In this document: positions 4,792 through 50,522 of the stretch, piece after piece
How the letters are laid out: each line of letters begins with the position of its first letter
How positions within the stretch are numbered: the stretch's first letter is position 1
Source of the DNA: an uncultured Candidatus Saccharibacteria bacterium
GTDB taxonomy: Bacteria; Patescibacteriota; Minisyncoccia; Phycocordibacterales; DATGWK01
Reading direction: 5' to 3'
NCBI GenBank assembly: GCA_964492195.1
Contig: CAZBJL010000001.1
Location: 79,082 to 143,081 of the forward strand
DNA length: 64,000 nucleotides
The notes under the pieces: model-generated
The model's input: the letters and a program-made list of their open reading frames with translations, nothing else
Told to the model about the DNA's origin: nothing
Databases searched by the model: none
Made by a program: the position numbers and the translations under genes

Positions 4792-4835
4792 CACCTCGTA
4801 GATTCGCACAGCGAATTACCACGAGGTGTTTTTTT
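4792..4835 (+). terminator. rho-independent terminator (nested hairpin + T7)
   Basis: Stem cacctcgt...acgaggtg with inner stem attcg/cgaat, followed by ttttttt. Abuts the trxB stop codon (convergent). Confidence 0.5.
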
Positions 4836-5754
4836 ATGCCCGCAAATAGAGGTAGATGTCCTCGAGTGCTTTTACTGCATCACCAGCAGCGATGTTGTTT
4901 TGGTGATAGAGACCATCTGTGCAGTCTCCTGCAGCCCAGATGCCAGGTACGTGTGTCATTTGAGTCTTCGGGTCAACGGGAATCTGTCCGTATTGGTTGA
5001 GCGCAACAGCATCTTTTGCAAAATCTGTATTTGGAATGAGGCCAATTTCAACAAAGATTCCTTGCACAGAAAGAGTAATATCTGTAGCAGTTTTTTCGTC
5101 TGTGTATGTAAAAGAATTTACAAATTTTTCACCCTCGATTTTTTTTGGAATTGCATTCCTAATTAATTTCATGTTCGGGTGAGCCAAGACTTTTTCAACA
5201 GTTACCGGGTCAGCCTTGAGTGTATCGCCGCGGTTTATGAGTGTAACGCTTTTTGCATAGGCTAAAAGTTGCGCAGCTGTTTCAAAGCCGGCATTTCCGC
5301 CACCAACAACCAGCAAATCTTTGTCAGCAAACAATGGGCCGTCGCATGATGCGCAGTAGGTGAGTCCTTTACCGTCAAACTGCGCTGCACCAGGGATTTC
5401 GAGTTTACGGCGATGACTTCCGGTTGTAATGAGAACTGTTTTTGCTTCGTATGAAGCCGAGTCTGTTGTTATAGAAAAAATGTCACCGCTTTTGCTGATT
5501 TTTGTGACGTATTCACCTTCGCGAATATTGACCATGTCTCCGGCATTTGCCTCAAGGTGCTTTTTGAGATTCTCAACAAGGTCGAGTCCGCTAATAGAAA
5601 TGGTACCAATCCAATTTTGAATATCTTCGGCGACTGAACTCTGGCTTTCAAAATTTGGTGTAATAAAAACAGTCGAGAGTCTTTTTCTCGACGCATATAC
5701 ACCGGCGGCAACACCAGCCGGCCCACCGCCTAAAATTGCGAGATCATACACCAT
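4834..5754 (-). CDS. trxB: thioredoxin-disulfide reductase
   Basis: GGGPAG FAD motif, CASCDG redox-active disulfide, GGGNAG NADPH motif. Confidence 0.9.
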   Translation of the reverse strand: MVYDLAILGGGPAGVAAGVYASRKRLSTVFITPNFESQSSVAEDIQNWIGTISISGLDLVENLKKHLEANAGDMVNIREGEYVTKISKSGDIFSITTDSASYEAKTVLITTGSHRRKLEIPGAAQFDGKGLTYCASCDGPLFADKDLLVVGGGNAGFETAAQLLAYAKSVTLINRGDTLKADPVTVEKVLAHPNMKLIRNAIPKKIEGEKFVNSFTYTDEKTATDITLSVQGIFVEIGLIPNTDFAKDAVALNQYGQIPVDPKTQMTHVPGIWAAGDCTDGLYHQNNIAAGDAVKALEDIYLYLRA

Positions 5755-5760
5755 TAGCGA

Positions 5761-6957
5761 TTACTTTAACTTAGAACGACGTAAAAAGGCAGGGACAGCG
5801 CTCCATTCATCGTCTTCGTCAGTTTCACCCATTGGGATTGGTTTCTTTTCAGAAGAAGTTTCAACAAGCTTTGGCTGGCTGATAGCTGTAGGAACGGAAA
5901 TAGTGTTGTAAATTTTGCCTTTCTTTTCCGTTTCTTCTTCAGGACTTCGGTCGATAATTCTTTTCTGTTCTTCGTGTTGGAAAAGAGATTTGCGAACAGC
6001 GGCTTCGGGGAATCCTGTTGCAATAACGGTAATCCGCACTTCACCCTTTTTGAGCGCATCGCTTCTGATCGTTCCAAAAATAATTTTGGCGCTTGGGTCA
6101 ACGGATTCTGTAACAATTTTAGCGGCATCTTGGATTTCAAACATAGTGAGGTCGTCGCCACCAGCAATAGAAAAGAGTACGCCTTTTGCACCCGCAATAG
6201 AAAGTTCAAGGAGGGGAGAATTGATAGCCATTTTTGCGGCTTCTTCGGCGCGTTTGTCGCCTCCGGCATTACCGATACCCATAAGCGCAGGACCAGCATT
6301 TTCCATAATGGCTTTGATGTCGGCAAAGTCGATGTTGATGACACCGGGAGTTGTGATGAGGTCGGAAATTGCTTCGACTGCCTGTCTCAACACTTCGTCA
6401 CACATTGCGAAGGCACTTCGTGCGCTTGTTTCTTTATTGATGATGCTCAAAAGGCGATCGTTCGGAATGACAATAATAGCGTCTACAACGCTTCGAAGTT
6501 CTTCGAGGCCTTGTTCTGCGACACGCATGCGCTGGAGACCTTCAAAAAAGAAGGGCTTGGTAACGACAGCAACGGTGAGCGCACCGAGTTCTTTGGCGAT
6601 CTGGGCGATGCGAGGTGACGCACCTGTACCAGTACCACCTCCGAGTCCGCCGGTAACGAACACCATGTCTGCACCTTGGATTGCTTCACGAACTTCTTCT
6701 TGAGCTTCATCTACTGCACGACGGCCAAGTTCTGGATTCATGCCGGTACCGAGACCTCGAGTCAAATTTTTGCCGATGTGAATCTTTTTCTTCGCAAGCG
6801 TGTTGTGAAGATCTTGTGCGTCTGTATTGATTGCGATGAATTCAACGCCCTTAACCTTGGAGTTGATCATGTGGTTCAGTGCATTTTTGCCGGAACCACC
6901 AACACCGAGGACTTTGATTCGTGCAAATGCTTCAACTTCTGGCTTGATTTGGGGCAT
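5761..6957 (-). CDS. ftsZ: cell division protein FtsZ
   Basis: GGGTGTG tubulin signature and VGGSGKNA-like N-terminus. Start taken at MPQIKPEV. Confidence 0.92.
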   Translation of the reverse strand: MPQIKPEVEAFARIKVLGVGGSGKNALNHMINSKVKGVEFIAINTDAQDLHNTLAKKKIHIGKNLTRGLGTGMNPELGRRAVDEAQEEVREAIQGADMVFVTGGLGGGTGTGASPRIAQIAKELGALTVAVVTKPFFFEGLQRMRVAEQGLEELRSVVDAIIVIPNDRLLSIINKETSARSAFAMCDEVLRQAVEAISDLITTPGVINIDFADIKAIMENAGPALMGIGNAGGDKRAEEAAKMAINSPLLELSIAGAKGVLFSIAGGDDLTMFEIQDAAKIVTESVDPSAKIIFGTIRSDALKKGEVRITVIATGFPEAAVRKSLFQHEEQKRIIDRSPEEETEKKGKIYNTISVPTAISQPKLVETSSEKKPIPMGETDEDDEWSAVPAFLRRSKLK

Positions 6958-7130
6958 GGTGATGGTAGTTAATAATATTAGATGCCCAATGATACCACAG
7001 GGAAATTTCAAAAGAAAACACTTGACCCAAGGCACGTCGTGTTTCTAATTACAAGCCACTTTTCTGCTAATTTTAAGAAAAATTAAGCGAAAATTGAGGC
7101 TGTTTTTGGAATACTGGGAGGGGAATACGT

Positions 7131-8312
7131 TTACGGTAAAAACTGCTTCACAAAAGAAAGGATTTTGTTTTTTGTGCGTTTGGTGATTTTGCTGAAATGA
7201 AGTGCTCCTGAATCGTCTGTTGAAAGTCCCCATACACAGAGGCCATATGCCACTGACCATGAGCTGTCTTTGAACGGGCTTTTTGCTGGGTCACCAGAAT
7301 GAATTGCTGCAACTCGCGCTGGAAGCATAAGAGAGCTTTTTGCAATTTCTTCGATACCACCAATACTTGCACCTCCGCCGGTAAGAATAATTCCTGCGGG
7401 AAGAAGTCCGGCGTGACCAACTTTTTTAAGGTGATTACCGACAAGATCAAACATGTCTTCGATTCTTGCGTCCATGATGTCGTCGAGTTTCTTGCGGGGA
7501 ATGTTGAAAGAAGTGATGCCGCCGATTTTTATGTGTTCGGCTTCGTCGAGTGCGATTTTAAATCCAAGCGCAATGTCGTTCGTAATATTTGAAGAACCAA
7601 CAGGAAATACTTCGAGCGACTGCGGTTTGTTTTCGTCAAAGACGGCAAGGGTCAATGTTTCTGAACCAATGTTTACAAGTGCACAGCCAGCAATTTTCTG
7701 ACTTTTGTTTAAGGTGACGAGACTTGCAGCCATGGGCGACGCCATAACATCGATAACTTCAACTCCCGTTTCTTCAACTGCTTCGATTAAATTATGTAAA
7801 TGATGTTCGAGATACGTTATGAAAATCATGCGACATTCGAGCTTGTTGCCGCGAAGTCCTGCGGGGTTGTTGCCCAACACGAGCTTTCCGTCGAGTTTGT
7901 ACTGAAGGGGAATCGAGTGAATCGTTTCTCGATTCACAATCATTGAAGATGGGATTTCTTTTTCGCAGGCTTCGTGGACTTTCGTGACGTCGAGTTCGTC
8001 AATTTCAGAATCTCCACGAGATACCATGATAGAGCCTGTGGAAACAATGCTTTCGAGGCCGATTCCACCAACAGAAAGAAAAGCCCGCTTGATTTTAATG
8101 CCGCTTGTTTTTTCGGCGTGGGCGATTGCTTGGCTTAAACTTTTTACAACATCCGGCGCGCTGATTACGTACCCATGACGAAGGCCTTTAGACTCGGCAA
8201 ACCCGAGCCCTAACACACGTGGAAATTCCTTACCAGAGTCGGCGCTTTCCGCCACGACCACTTTGATTTGGTATGTTCCTATATCTATGCCAACAGTTGT
8301 TTTTTTGGACAT
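7131..8312 (-). CDS. ftsA: cell division protein FtsA
   Basis: Actin-like ATPase: N-terminal VGIDIGT and GGGAS motifs. Confidence 0.9.
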   Translation of the reverse strand: MSKKTTVGIDIGTYQIKVVVAESADSGKEFPRVLGLGFAESKGLRHGYVISAPDVVKSLSQAIAHAEKTSGIKIKRAFLSVGGIGLESIVSTGSIMVSRGDSEIDELDVTKVHEACEKEIPSSMIVNRETIHSIPLQYKLDGKLVLGNNPAGLRGNKLECRMIFITYLEHHLHNLIEAVEETGVEVIDVMASPMAASLVTLNKSQKIAGCALVNIGSETLTLAVFDENKPQSLEVFPVGSSNITNDIALGFKIALDEAEHIKIGGITSFNIPRKKLDDIMDARIEDMFDLVGNHLKKVGHAGLLPAGIILTGGGASIGGIEEIAKSSLMLPARVAAIHSGDPAKSPFKDSSWSVAYGLCVWGLSTDDSGALHFSKITKRTKNKILSFVKQFLP

Positions 8313-17062: not shown

Positions 17063-17155
17063 CACCCACCCCTCCAGGAGAGCGCATAAATTCTACTGAA
17101 TTTTGCTCCTCTCGGTCGCCTTCGCGACCTGCGAACTCTCCTGTTAGGGTGGGTT
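17063..17155. repeat. structured palindromic repeat, family B copy 1 (candidate ncRNA)
   Basis: Core cgcATAAATTCTACTGAATTTTGctc + GC hairpin ggtcgc-cttc-gcgacc, enclosed by stem caggagag/ctctcctg and outer cacccaccc/gggtgggt. Sits in the gyrA 3' UTR before the terminator. Confidence 0.6.
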
Positions 17156-20539: not shown

Positions 20540-20920
20540 ATGAAAAAGCTCTATCCTCTCATCCTCCTTGCTCTTGGTTCGTTTTCTCTGCCGATGCCTT
20601 TGTTTGCAGCTGTGTGCACGTCATTTACGGGTACACCGAGCACGTTTGGAGACGTTATCTGTTTGTTTACTGATCTCTTGCTCACGATAATCCCGATCGT
20701 TGCTGGTTTGGCGCTCGTCTTTTTCTTCTGGGGCTTGGCTAAGTCCATTTTGCACGCTGACAACGAAGATGCTCGCGAAGAAGGGCGGGAAGTAATGAAA
20801 TGGGGAATTGTGGCGCTTTTTGTACTCGTTTCGATTTGGGGAATCGTCCTCTACCTCCATGGTGATTTCTTTGGATACAGTCCTGTCGGTATTCCACAGC
20901 TGCCGACAGGTTCGATATAA
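20540..20920 (+). CDS. VirB2/TrbC-like pilin-like protein, paralog 3
   Basis: Signal peptide (PLFAA). Conserved FFWGLAKSIL-HADNEDAREEGREVMKWGIVALFVLVSIWGIV core. Confidence 0.6.
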   Translation: MKKLYPLILLALGSFSLPMPLFAAVCTSFTGTPSTFGDVICLFTDLLLTIIPIVAGLALVFFFWGLAKSILHADNEDAREEGREVMKWGIVALFVLVSIWGIVLYLHGDFFGYSPVGIPQLPTGSI

Positions 20921-20924
20921 ACAT

Positions 20925-21290
20925 ATGAAACTACAAAAAATTATTTTGAAAATTAAAACTGTAATTCTACTTTCCGTTTTTTCTATTCCCGCATTCGCAT
21001 TTGCTCAACAAGCTGACGGAATAAAGGGACTCATCGTATCTTTTGGGAATATTGTTCGGCTTCTTATCCCTTTGAGTGCTGCATGTGCGCTCCTGTTCTT
21101 TTTCTGGGGTTTGGCAAAATCGATTTTGAAATCTGACAGTGAAGATGGAAGGGAAGAAGGAAAAGAAATAATGAAATGGGGCATTGTTGCGCTTTTCGTA
21201 ATTACTTCTATCTGGGGCATCGTTGGATTTATTCAGGATGACCTTGGTATTCCAGATGTACACACCATTTCAGCGCCGGGTGTGAGGTAG
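20925..21290 (+). CDS. VirB2/TrbC-like pilin-like protein, paralog 4
   Basis: Signal peptide (AFAFAQQ). FFWGLAKSILKSDSEDGREEGKEIMKWGIVALFVITSIWGIV core. Start moved to the ATG at 20925 to avoid overlap with paralog 3. Confidence 0.6.
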   Translation: MKLQKIILKIKTVILLSVFSIPAFAFAQQADGIKGLIVSFGNIVRLLIPLSAACALLFFFWGLAKSILKSDSEDGREEGKEIMKWGIVALFVITSIWGIVGFIQDDLGIPDVHTISAPGVR

Positions 21291-21383
21291 TGTGGTACTA
21301 TGAATTCGACGGAGCTTTAAAATTGTGCTCAATTTATTATTAGTTTCTTTAAAAATATGCCCAGCATGGTTGGGCTCAATCAA

Positions 21384-21728
21384 ATGAAAAAAATTATTAT
21401 CGGAACCTTGCTTTTTGCTCCAATGTTCGCGTTTGCCCAGCAATTAGGCAATATCACCACGCTCATTCGATCAATCGGCAATATCATCCAGATTCTCATT
21501 CCGATCACTGCTGCGCTCGCCCTCCTCTACTTCTTCTGGGGCCTTGCAAAGTTTATTTTGAACTCTGCTGACGAAGAAAAACGTTCAGAAGGCAAGCATA
21601 TTATGATCTGGGGCGTTGTTGCGCTTTTCGTGATCGTGTCTGTTTGGGGTCTCACTGGTTTCATTGGCGATGCACTCGACATCAATACTCCACAGAGCCA
21701 ACCAATTCCTACCGTTAACGGTATCTAA
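21384..21728 (+). CDS. VirB2/TrbC-like pilin-like protein, paralog 5
   Basis: Signal peptide (MFAFAQQ). FFWGLAKFILNSADEEKRSEGKHIMIWGVVALFVIVSVWGL core. Confidence 0.6.
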   Translation: MKKIIIGTLLFAPMFAFAQQLGNITTLIRSIGNIIQILIPITAALALLYFFWGLAKFILNSADEEKRSEGKHIMIWGVVALFVIVSVWGLTGFIGDALDINTPQSQPIPTVNGI

Positions 21729-27434: not shown

Positions 27435-27544
27435 AAGCACTTATGCATATCTCAAAATGACCGCCATAAATTCTACTGAATTTTGGCTCACTCTCGGCGC
27501 CTACGCGCCTGCGAGAGTCATTTTTCAACATGCATAAGTGCTTC
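27435..27544. repeat. structured palindromic repeat, family B copy 2 (candidate ncRNA)
   Basis: Outer perfect 15 bp IR gaagcacttatgcat/atgcataagtgcttc, inner stem aaaatgac/gtcatttt. Core ccgcCATAAATTCTACTGAATTTTGgctc + ctctcg-(ggcgcc-tac-gcgcc)-tg-cgagag. Confidence 0.6.
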
Positions 27545-32717: not shown

Positions 32718-32742
32718 TAATGAATTGTATTTCTATTCCAAT

Positions 32743-32885
32743 CCAGCTCTAAAGGAGGGTTTCGCAGCCCCTCACAAGGAGGGACAAGTCAGACCGGACT
32801 TTCGTCTGGTATTTCTCGAAAGTCCGGTCGTGGGCGAGAAGAGCGAAATTTCAGCAGAAATTTACGCGCCCTCCTGAAGAGCTGG
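32743..32885. repeat. structured palindromic repeat, family A copy 1 (candidate novel ncRNA)
   Basis: Terminal IR atccagctct/agagctggat. Nested helices aggaggg/ccctcct, 13 bp gaccggactttcg/cgaaagtccggtc, gcgaaattt-CAGCAG-aaattt(a)cgc. Conserved gtgggcgaga. Second copy at 50389-50512 with compensatory changes in every helix. Confidence 0.65.
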
Positions 32886-32937
32886 ATTACGCCATATCTT
32901 GCCTTTTTTGCACGTTTACTGTATATTTTCTCTCACT

Positions 32938-48016: not shown

Positions 48017-48233
48017 CAGTATTTTTCTAACTTGCTTCGCAAAGCTGGATAGAATCATTTATAGAGAGTACTTGCCTAAAACCTACTTATGTGCTATATT
48101 TTTTAAGGATCGATCTTTAACACAGAAAGGATAAAGACATATAAAAATATGTGAGTTGTGAGTTTCATCCATCGCGCTTGTGTGCGGTGGATTCTTGTTC
48201 AGTGTCAGTTGTATCGCATTAGGAGTGATAGAG

Positions 48234-48938
48234 ATGAAATCATCGTTCGTTCGTATTGTGGCTACGTGCTTGTCCATTGTCCTTACGTTGCTCGACCTGA
48301 GTTCAGCCAAGGCTGACACGATCAGTACCTGGAACGTCGGCTCCGGCCAACCGCAGGACAACTTCTTGCTCACGCAGGTCTCGGCATTTCCCGGTGGCAT
48401 GCTCGAGCTCGGTCAGCGGGCGATCTTCCGCCAGTCGGCAACACCTGTTGCACTGACGGGTGACACGTACCTCGTGTACTCTGGTTTCCAGACTGCAGGC
48501 GAGTACGGCGCGCCCACAACTGTCACGAATCGCAATCGTTGGAATTTCGATTACCACATCTCCTACGGAGGTGGAGTCCAGAACTTGGACAGTCTCACCA
48601 TGACGATCATGAGCCCTTCCGGCAACACCGTCATGGCGCCATTTTTCGACATGAAGGTTGCCAACAACGACAACGTCACCGGCAGTACACCGTTCCCCGG
48701 CGGCGATTCCCAGAACCCCGTGTTCTTCATTCAAGATTCGCAAAATCCGGTTTTCGCGCCGTGGTTCGCGCCAAGTTTCGACATGAACGTCGAAGGCATC
48801 TACACCTTCACGCTCACAGCTGTTGAAGCCAACACCACCATCACGCAGGTCATGCACCTGAACGTCGTTCCGGCTCCGGGCTCGTTCGCTCTTCTCGGCC
48901 TCGGTGGCCTTGCAGCTGCACGTCGTCGTCGTCGCTAA
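48234..48938 (+). CDS. secreted protein with C-terminal PEP-CTERM sorting motif, GC-rich
   Basis: Signal peptide MKSSFVRIVATCLSIVLTLLDLSSAKA. C-terminus VPAPGSFALLGLGGLAAARRRRR (VPxP - hydrophobic helix - Arg cluster). AGGAG SD. Clearly GC-richer than the flanks. Terminator at 48965-48993. Confidence 0.6.
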   Translation: MKSSFVRIVATCLSIVLTLLDLSSAKADTISTWNVGSGQPQDNFLLTQVSAFPGGMLELGQRAIFRQSATPVALTGDTYLVYSGFQTAGEYGAPTTVTNRNRWNFDYHISYGGGVQNLDSLTMTIMSPSGNTVMAPFFDMKVANNDNVTGSTPFPGGDSQNPVFFIQDSQNPVFAPWFAPSFDMNVEGIYTFTLTAVEANTTITQVMHLNVVPAPGSFALLGLGGLAAARRRRR

Positions 48939-50358: not shown

Positions 50359-50388
50359 TTCTGCATTGTTTGTATTAGTTTTTCTAAA

Positions 50389-50512
50389 CCCAGCCCACAA
50401 GGAGAGTTTCCGCAGCCAGGTCGCATTTTCGTCATGAATTTTCGAAAATGCGACCGTGGGCGAGAGTAGCCGAAATCCAGCAGGATTTACGGCGCTCTCC
50501 TGAAGGGCTGGG
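50389..50512. repeat. structured palindromic repeat, family A copy 2 (candidate novel ncRNA)
   Basis: acccagccc/gggctgggt ends. aggagag/ctctcct. 13 bp ggtcgcattttcg/cgaaaatgcgacc. gccgaaatcc-CAGCAG-ggattt(a)cggc. Ends 11 nt before the ABC ATPase start codon. Confidence 0.65.
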
Positions 50513-50522
50513 TTAAACCTCC

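Follow-up and report, generated by a model that had tools for sequence, protein, structure and literature searches.

MITEs and the Correia/NEMIS, ERIC, RUP and BOX elements carry conserved terminal inverted repeats and usually target-site duplications, and integron attC sites have conserved R''/R' core sites at their base and form arrays adjoining intI. The CPR/Patescibacteria have tiny genomes that are generally considered to carry little repetitive DNA, and few non-coding RNAs are known from them. REPINs are short dispersed extragenic repeats that are predicted to form hairpins in single-stranded DNA or mRNA and in which compensatory changes are common (Bertels & Rainey 2011, PMC3116915). 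Their copies are clustered, persist in lineages and are mobilised by RAYT (TnpA-REP) transposases (PMC3116915). Skipping-rope, DUF3800-I and drum are orphan structured motifs of unknown function (Weinberg et al. 2017, PMC5737381), and that paper does not report them as multi-copy repeats that are present in one genome and absent from its sister.

Here, we analysed a 64-kb stretch of DNA (the window) from a Parcubacteria/Paceibacterota (CPR) bacterium in which two copies of a multi-helix element had been predicted. The element belongs to a family that is dispersed through Paceibacteria (CPR) genomes, lies between genes, measures ~90 nt and was previously uncatalogued. The family behaves like a small selfish or domesticated repeat and not like a switch for neighbouring genes; our best, though tentative, explanation is a non-autonomous mobile intergenic repeat that would be REPIN-like in behaviour but not in anatomy.

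Fold of the two long copies

The coordinates given by the original prediction were right for both copies. The copies and the parts of the fold of copy 1 are as follows.

32740-32888, + strand: copy 1 (the original finding), long-form, between alr and the rpmG promoter
32741-32750, + strand: P1 5' strand of copy 1, atccagctct; partner agagctggat at 32878-32887
32753-32759, + strand: P2 5' strand of copy 1, aggaggg; partner ccctcct at 32869-32875
32760-32765, + strand: P2a 5' strand of copy 1, tttcgc; partner gcgaga at 32834-32839
32769-32783, + strand: extra small hairpin of copy 1, ccctc-acaag-gaggg, from the MFE structure and an alignment gap
32792-32829, + strand: extended P3 hairpin of copy 1, gaccggactttcg / cgaaagtccggtc
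32843-32867, + strand: P4 hairpin of copy 1, with an AGCA loop, a C-G closing pair and a bulged A at 32864
50387-50514, + strand: copy 2, long-form, between a SWIB-domain gene and an ABC ATPase gene

Both copies fold far more stably than shuffled sequences (z = -7.8 for copy 1, whose MFE is -73.5 kcal/mol, and -10.0 for copy 2; for each copy, none of 200 shuffles was as stable). When the 21-nt insertion of copy 1 is taken out, the two are 87% identical, and RNAalifold on the aligned copies yields 48 pairs, 10 of them compensatory, with both sides changed, and none with a one-sided change; the sole non-pair in this structure is an alignment gap at the terminal pair. The predicted retention of the helices by compensation is thus borne out, with no helix pair broken. 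Two segments of the earlier fold, tttcGC and GCGAGA, had been taken as unpaired and in fact pair together as a further helix, P2a. What had been described as a 22-nt partial duplication in copy 1 is indeed an extra segment, but it is a 21-nt insertion (~32769-32789) that partly forms its own small hairpin, and copy 2 is without it. Co-variation in P3 also stood, at four co-varying pairs instead of six positions.

Two covariance models were used, R1, built from copies 1 and 2, and R2, a second model. Copy 1 scores 107.6 bits with R1 and 41.8 bits with R2, and copy 2 scores 147 and 21.8 bits. Copies 1 and 2 are the least typical of the five window members, the others of which reach 52.7-77.8 bits with R2, and their low R2 scores are due to their 13-bp P3 extension, against only 4-6 bp in typical family members. 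P4 is the most conserved module of the family.

Extent and consensus anatomy of the family

Where two copies had been reported in the window, the covariance model finds five: a search with R1 added three on the - strand (46-52 bits, E ~1e-9 to 1e-11), all with a short P3, and with P1/P2 sequences that are unrelated yet still paired.

17063-17155, - strand: copy 3, short-form; R1 51.8 bits, R2 52.7 bits
27434-27544, - strand (model hit 27442-27536): copy 4, short-form; R2 61.3 bits
24535-24625, - strand: copy 5, short-form with the majority core type; R2 77.8 bits

A pattern derived from the five window copies (CGAGNNNAGCN{6,7}CAGYAGN{2,3}TTTAYG) was scanned on JGI/ENA metagenome contigs and gave at least 120 loci (L numbers below), most of which carry full-length members. 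The covariance-model search over metagenomes that the original prediction had called for thus returned many further members, mostly full-length: with R1 and R2, full-length matches measure ~85-97 nt in most listed loci, and 98 matches fall in 100 metagenome loci (632 kb), among the matches listed. A gene next to one metagenome member carries the name Candidatus Paceibacterota. The same pattern gave 0 matches in IMG/VR viral contigs, and the family is therefore not phage-borne. An initial pattern, GTGGGCGAGA...CAGCAG...CCTGAAG, had given 63 hits in unrelated phyla, none of which is scored by R2, and these were set aside as chance matches.

Several loci hold more than one copy. Besides the five in 64 kb of window, three occur in each of L096 and L084 and two in each of L088, L133 and L091, and adjacent or inverted pairs are present in L100, L168, L120, L125 and L162. 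The members of inverted pairs lie ~20-30 nt apart, head-to-head in L100 (4175-4382) and L168 (3571-3778) and tail-to-tail in L120 (1191-1396). Partial or low-scoring copies are present in L162 (903-967), where a mutated core adjoins the copy, in L123 and in L179.

The earlier statement that the element matches no known family also held. At the gathering threshold, Rfam 15 detected only tRNAs in the whole window; with E up to 10, the two original copies gave only chance hits far below the gathering scores; and 20 loci with typical members gave only tRNA, tmRNA and LSU rRNA. No description of the element was found in a literature search. The junction was compared by eye with the hammerhead, twister-sister, K-turn, 5S loop E and sarcin-ricin motifs, and the resemblances of GAGAGUAG and CGAGAGGA were rejected because only a few copies show them and the family as a whole does not conserve them.

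The consensus was drawn from an alignment (A6) of 66 distinct short members. Overall, a variable basal helix of 17-40 bp is capped by a conserved three-way junction of 52 nt. The basal helix, P1/P2, measures ~19-20 bp in the consensus; its sequence is essentially free, and 19 of its 19 pairs have changed on both sides. P2a follows, in which M-U-U-G-C is paired with G-C-A-K and positions 22:52 covary between A-U and C-G. A conserved GCA/GA internal loop separates P2a from P3, which has 4-6 bp, a GNNG-type loop and at times long insertions. Junction nucleotide A53 stands after P3 and G81 after P4; G81 is followed by the 3' strand of P2/P1. P4 consists of a G-C pair and 7 further bp, has a bulged A and ends in a C-AGCA-G loop. 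Standard pairs fill 90.5% of the cells of the 66 members against 67.4% in shuffles, none of 500 of which reaches the observed value, and only 33-51% of cells pair when the 3' partner is slid by 1-3 columns. Both sides have changed in 31 of the 37 pairs, and 99.5% of P4 cells are paired.

Beyond this common plan the members vary at their base and at two places in the cap. In 32% of copies the basal helix runs at least 8 bp past the model (null, 1.4%), and the total stem can be as long as ~40 bp, as it is in L124. A conserved outer module, AAACUC-GUYGMA ... RAGWAA-GAGUUU, characterises one subclass; another has GCGA ... GAGCG flanks, which are probably better read as tandem G·A pairs that continue the helix. 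Extra hairpins or long extensions were seen in L099 (7498-7608), L146 (6130-6255), L134, L081, L089, L113, L174, L104 and L125 (1396-1566), and they sit in the P3 loop or between P2a and P3, as in the enlarged copies 1 and 2; the recurrence of these two places across members marks them as sites at which the fold tolerates expansion. Two core subtypes, UUGCGCAG...GAGCAKAGC and UCUCGCAG...CGAGAGG, coexist both in the window and in L195.

The predicted single-strandedness of the element is upheld by its G·U pairs. There are 89 G·U against 32 A·C in the whole structure, and 27 against 1 in P4; at G54:Y80, 38 members have G-C and 27 have G·U. This excess implies that one strand folds, either as RNA or as single-stranded DNA. 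A structured single-strand element without a known family match is thus strongly supported.

A folded strand with ~25 core nucleotides that are invariant or nearly so, unpaired ones included, is also what would be expected of a paralogous family of small-RNA genes, possibly forming a ribonucleoprotein, with each copy transcribed on the model strand. We consider this reading possible, if somewhat unlikely. The long basal helix would then be a processing stalk or the RNA's own terminator hairpin, and the cap, with its tandem G·A motifs, would bind a protein or have a tertiary-structure function. Consistent with it are the strand specificity of the G·U pairs, the near-invariant core, the G·A-rich internal loops of some subclasses (the GCGA/GAGC base and the GCA/GA P3 arm) and the coexistence of core subtypes in the window and in L195, which also fits paralogous RNA genes and to that extent weighs against a mobile repeat. 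However, bacterial RNA genes do not usually show decayed or partial copies or occur as inverted adjacent pairs, and no complementary target of the variable arms is present elsewhere in the window; a guide or antisense role for these arms was dropped because within the window they match only other copies.

Gene context and turnover of the copies

The two original copies were correctly placed, 53 nt from the rpmG start codon and 11 nt from the ABC start codon, and a cis-regulatory role for rpmG and the ABC exporter/methyltransferase operon had been proposed. Such a riboswitch-like leader would fit the position of both copies, which precede the next gene and share its strand, and the AAGGAG-like sequence in P2 of copies 1-3, which is paired to CCUCCU. 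However, this sequence is not conserved in the family, and copy 1 ends at 32888, upstream of a promoter-like site of rpmG (TTGCCT-17-TATATT, 32899-32927, + strand). Likewise, copy 4, whose basal helix reaches 17 bp (GAAGCACTTATGCATGT / ATATGCATAAGTGCTTC), lies in a divergent spacer upstream of the promoter-like TTGGCA-17-TATAAT (27420-27392, - strand) of a DUF4446 gene. Copy 3 is bounded on one side by the stop codon of gyrA (17054, + strand) and on the other by the terminator of a convergent gene on the - strand; it has no downstream gene on its own strand. Moreover, the element is missing at both loci in relatives, and the metagenome copies, found in all spacer types and both orientations, have no gene association. 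The position of the promoters, the absence in relatives and the lack of a recurrent neighbour rule against the proposed regulatory role, and a leader is excluded for practical purposes. A caution follows for similar cases: compensatory changes between two intragenomic copies alone do not indicate a regulatory RNA.

Copy 5 has a tRNA gene of its own strand on either side, tRNA-Lys and tRNA-Leu, together with GCGA...GAGCG flanks and a weak promoter-like site (24681-24653) just upstream, a setting that would suit a small-RNA gene. Against this, no conserved promoter motif was seen on reading the upstream flanks of the copies. Linkage to tRNA genes was considered and rejected: 5 of 75 copies have a tRNA no more than 300 nt away, roughly as many as we would expect from the local tRNA density. 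Other ideas were tried on the window copies and abandoned. The sole ORF through copy 1 (55 aa) is not hydrophobic, as a type I toxin would be, and the ORFs through copies 4 and 5, judged by eye, are not common to the copies; the strand of the copies switches between 27.5 and 32.7 kb, but there is no matching switch of GC skew that would point to a replication-strand bias.

Two further features of the window were recorded. Three diverged 158-nt direct repeats, 68-74% identical, occupy 20690-21655; they are probably paralogous pilin-like genes, since the syntenic region of the sister genome holds a run of small paralogous genes with PF18895 (T4SS_pilin). A 252-aa ORF at 48180-48938 (+ strand) has the C-terminal end ...VVPAPGSFALLGLGGLAAARRRRR, which we take to resemble a PEP-CTERM-type sorting signal; the equivalent place in the sister genome (L066 6658-8376) holds different genes.

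The neighbours of the metagenome copies are unrelated housekeeping genes, and no protein family recurs beside them in more than 4 of the element-bearing loci analysed. Copies occur in tandem (35), convergent (9) and divergent (12) spacers and in both orientations. Stop codons, of a convergent or an upstream gene, usually lie ~8-25 nt from the copy, and longer gaps precede start codons, as would be expected if insertions near promoters were not tolerated; the spacer is usually longer on the 5' side of a copy than on its 3' side, which would also suit a small-RNA gene. Of 87 copies, 36 have TTTT in the 3' flank and 37 have AAAA in the 5' flank, against 11 and 10 for the opposite runs, and the A-run 5' and T-run 3' co-occur in ~40% of copies, much like a self-contained terminator, which small-RNA genes could use.

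These flanks bear most directly on a cis-acting gene-end element, that is a bidirectional terminator, an insulator, or a cleavage or binding site at mRNA 3' ends, whose role would be analogous to that of REP sequences or phage T7 RNase III sites. The short distance to stop codons, the long, near-perfect basal helices and the A/T runs speak for such an element, as does a recurrent position after ftsA: in three distant lineages (FtsA 50-56% identical), a copy lies 9-15 nt past the stop codon, antisense to ftsA/ftsZ.

L146 6130-6255: copy past ftsA
L082 635-726: copy past ftsA
L103 8-103: copy past ftsA

Copies also stand between ftsZ and trxB in L114 and L100, and the ftsA-ftsZ-trxB cluster of the window (4834-8312) has none. 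Nevertheless, we judge a gene-end element unlikely. The A/T runs are equally common in divergent spacers (7/13) and must accordingly be part of the element's outer helix rather than host terminators, which also disposes of host terminator loops as insertion targets. None of the five window copies is followed by a U-tract, although ordinary terminators are present elsewhere in the genome. An orientation-independent hairpin needs no strand-specific core, yet copies are found in both orientations, and the sister genome is without the element at the same sites.

That sister genome is syntenic with the window: its ClpB falls in the same 90%-identity cluster, its ABC ATPase is 89% identical, and gene order is kept. 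A model search of its 62 kb with filters off found no copy (best score, 13 bits), against 5 in the 64 kb of the window, and the four orthologous sites examined (copies 1, 2, 4 and 5) are all empty, with the flanking promoters and tRNA genes conserved.

Copy 1 site: in the window, the element between alr and the rpmG promoter; in the sister, an unrelated spacer with no copy
Copy 2 site: in the window, the element in the SWIB-ABC spacer; in the sister, an unrelated spacer with no copy
Copy 4 site: in the window, ~126 nt from a conserved CCGCAACAA block to the promoter; in the sister, 27 nt with the same blocks
Copy 5 site: in the window, a 154-nt tRNA-Lys/tRNA-Leu spacer with the element; in the sister, a 71-nt spacer without it

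The SWIB-ABC spacer has no element in three relatives with 89%, 82% and 81% ABC-protein identity. The absence of copies from the sister means that the element is dispensable, which weighs against a family of small-RNA genes. The sigma-70-like promoter sites of rpmG and DUF4446 are near base-for-base conserved in the sister genome; the remaining spacer is not. At the empty site of copy 4 (L202 9040-9075, - strand), the 27-nt segment reads GATATTGCGAAGCGAGCGTGTACTATT, and GCGAAGCGAGCG within it is similar to the GCGA...GAGCG flanks found around many copies in other genomes, such as L177, L161 and L095, and around window copy 5; it may be either a motif favoured as a target or a footprint. The alr-rpmG spacer of the sister (L202 14135-14200) is a different, hairpin-rich 170 nt that includes CCACAAGAGTGAG-TTGCCTCG-TCTCATTCCGTGG, a sequence that resembles the family's P1/P2 arms without the core between them and may be a decayed copy.

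The non-autonomous proliferating repeat with a folded strand remains our preferred reading, with the tentativeness already stated. It draws on the strong covariation and strand-specific fold, the density and clustering of copies, their decay, the basal helices that extend past the model far more often than in the null, the empty sister sites despite conserved gene order, the lack of a gene family association and the absence from viral contigs. The movement of the copies, its chemistry and the enzyme involved are what we infer from these observations. One strand, RNA or single-stranded DNA, would fold into a long basal hairpin of free sequence bearing the three-way-junction cap, and the basal helix would join both ends of the unit. 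The cap (P2a, the GCA/GA loop and P3, together with P4, A53 and G81) would serve as the recognition module for a putative trans-acting factor. New copies would enter gene-free DNA, mainly just past stop codons and in either orientation, and copies would be gained, persist and then decay.

Several observations sit less well with a mobile repeat. Neither the genes beside the copies, nor the 20 window ORFs that were scanned against Pfam, nor the precomputed Pfam labels on the syntenic genes of the sister genome yielded a transposase, reverse transcriptase or recombinase. The flanks show no consistent target-site duplications, L124 alone having a flanking TTTAGTA repeat. Moreover, the spacer between an xerC-like and an exonuclease-III-like gene carries a copy in three species, with ~95% core identity and compensatory changes that include a P1 A-U to G-C replacement; the outer palindromes of these copies are wholly different and fully paired. 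Such retention of pairing between species at one site would also be expected of small-RNA genes, and it looks like selection on resident copies, which suggests a host-level function. Neither these copies nor those that recur past ftsA in three distant lineages fit well with selfish DNA that is simply dead.

Another proposal, which we regard as improbable, makes the cap itself a functional RNA module, whose core would bind a protein or act catalytically, in a new RNA-based mobile element or RNP class of Paceibacteria/CPR, with a variable stem that would be processed (e.g. by RNase III) or would define the ends. If true, the family would represent a replicator or RNP of a kind undescribed in bacteria, and not a REP-like DNA repeat.

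Whichever reading applies, the family combines more than 100 members, very strong covariation, a conserved branched apex on a 20-40 bp stem of free sequence and turnover between sister species. It gives a new covariance model for annotating such genomes and a handle toward the putative protein that would recognise the element, and it offers a tractable case in which to ask whether the structure of a repeat is kept by replicator selection or by host function.

Comparison with known systems

An intrinsic terminator has a U-tract after its hairpin, a feature that the window copies lack. With skipping-rope, DUF3800-I and drum the element shares a complex covarying structure, a position that is rarely that of a leader and, at times, a terminator-like end; these motifs are in Rfam, however, and none of them matches the element.

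Among DNA repeats, the MITE, Correia, ERIC, RUP and BOX elements are similar in size (~100-150 nt), multi-copy and intergenic occurrence, insertion polymorphism between relatives and stable folds. Unlike MITEs, the element has terminal helices whose sequences differ completely between copies, with no conserved terminal inverted repeats. Like attC sites, it would, if recognised at all, be recognised in its folded single-stranded form, its structure is better conserved than its sequence and its terminal structure varies in length. In contrast to attC, its base is variable and its apex conserved, its copies are dispersed, and it shows neither GTTRRRY-type conservation at the base nor an associated integrase.

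REPINs come nearer. Both are multi-copy, extragenic and hairpin-forming, with compensatory changes, clusters and persisting copies. No RAYT gene was seen in the 64 kb of this genome (20 ORFs scanned against Pfam). REPINs have conserved ends, the inverted REP 16-25-mers, around a free spacer, whereas the element has free ends around its conserved 52-nt apical junction, a conserved centre that is the reverse of both MITEs and REPINs and counts against simple mobility of their kind; its fold is branched, and a REPIN is a simple hairpin. Judged by these likenesses, REPINs are the closest known analogue of the element.
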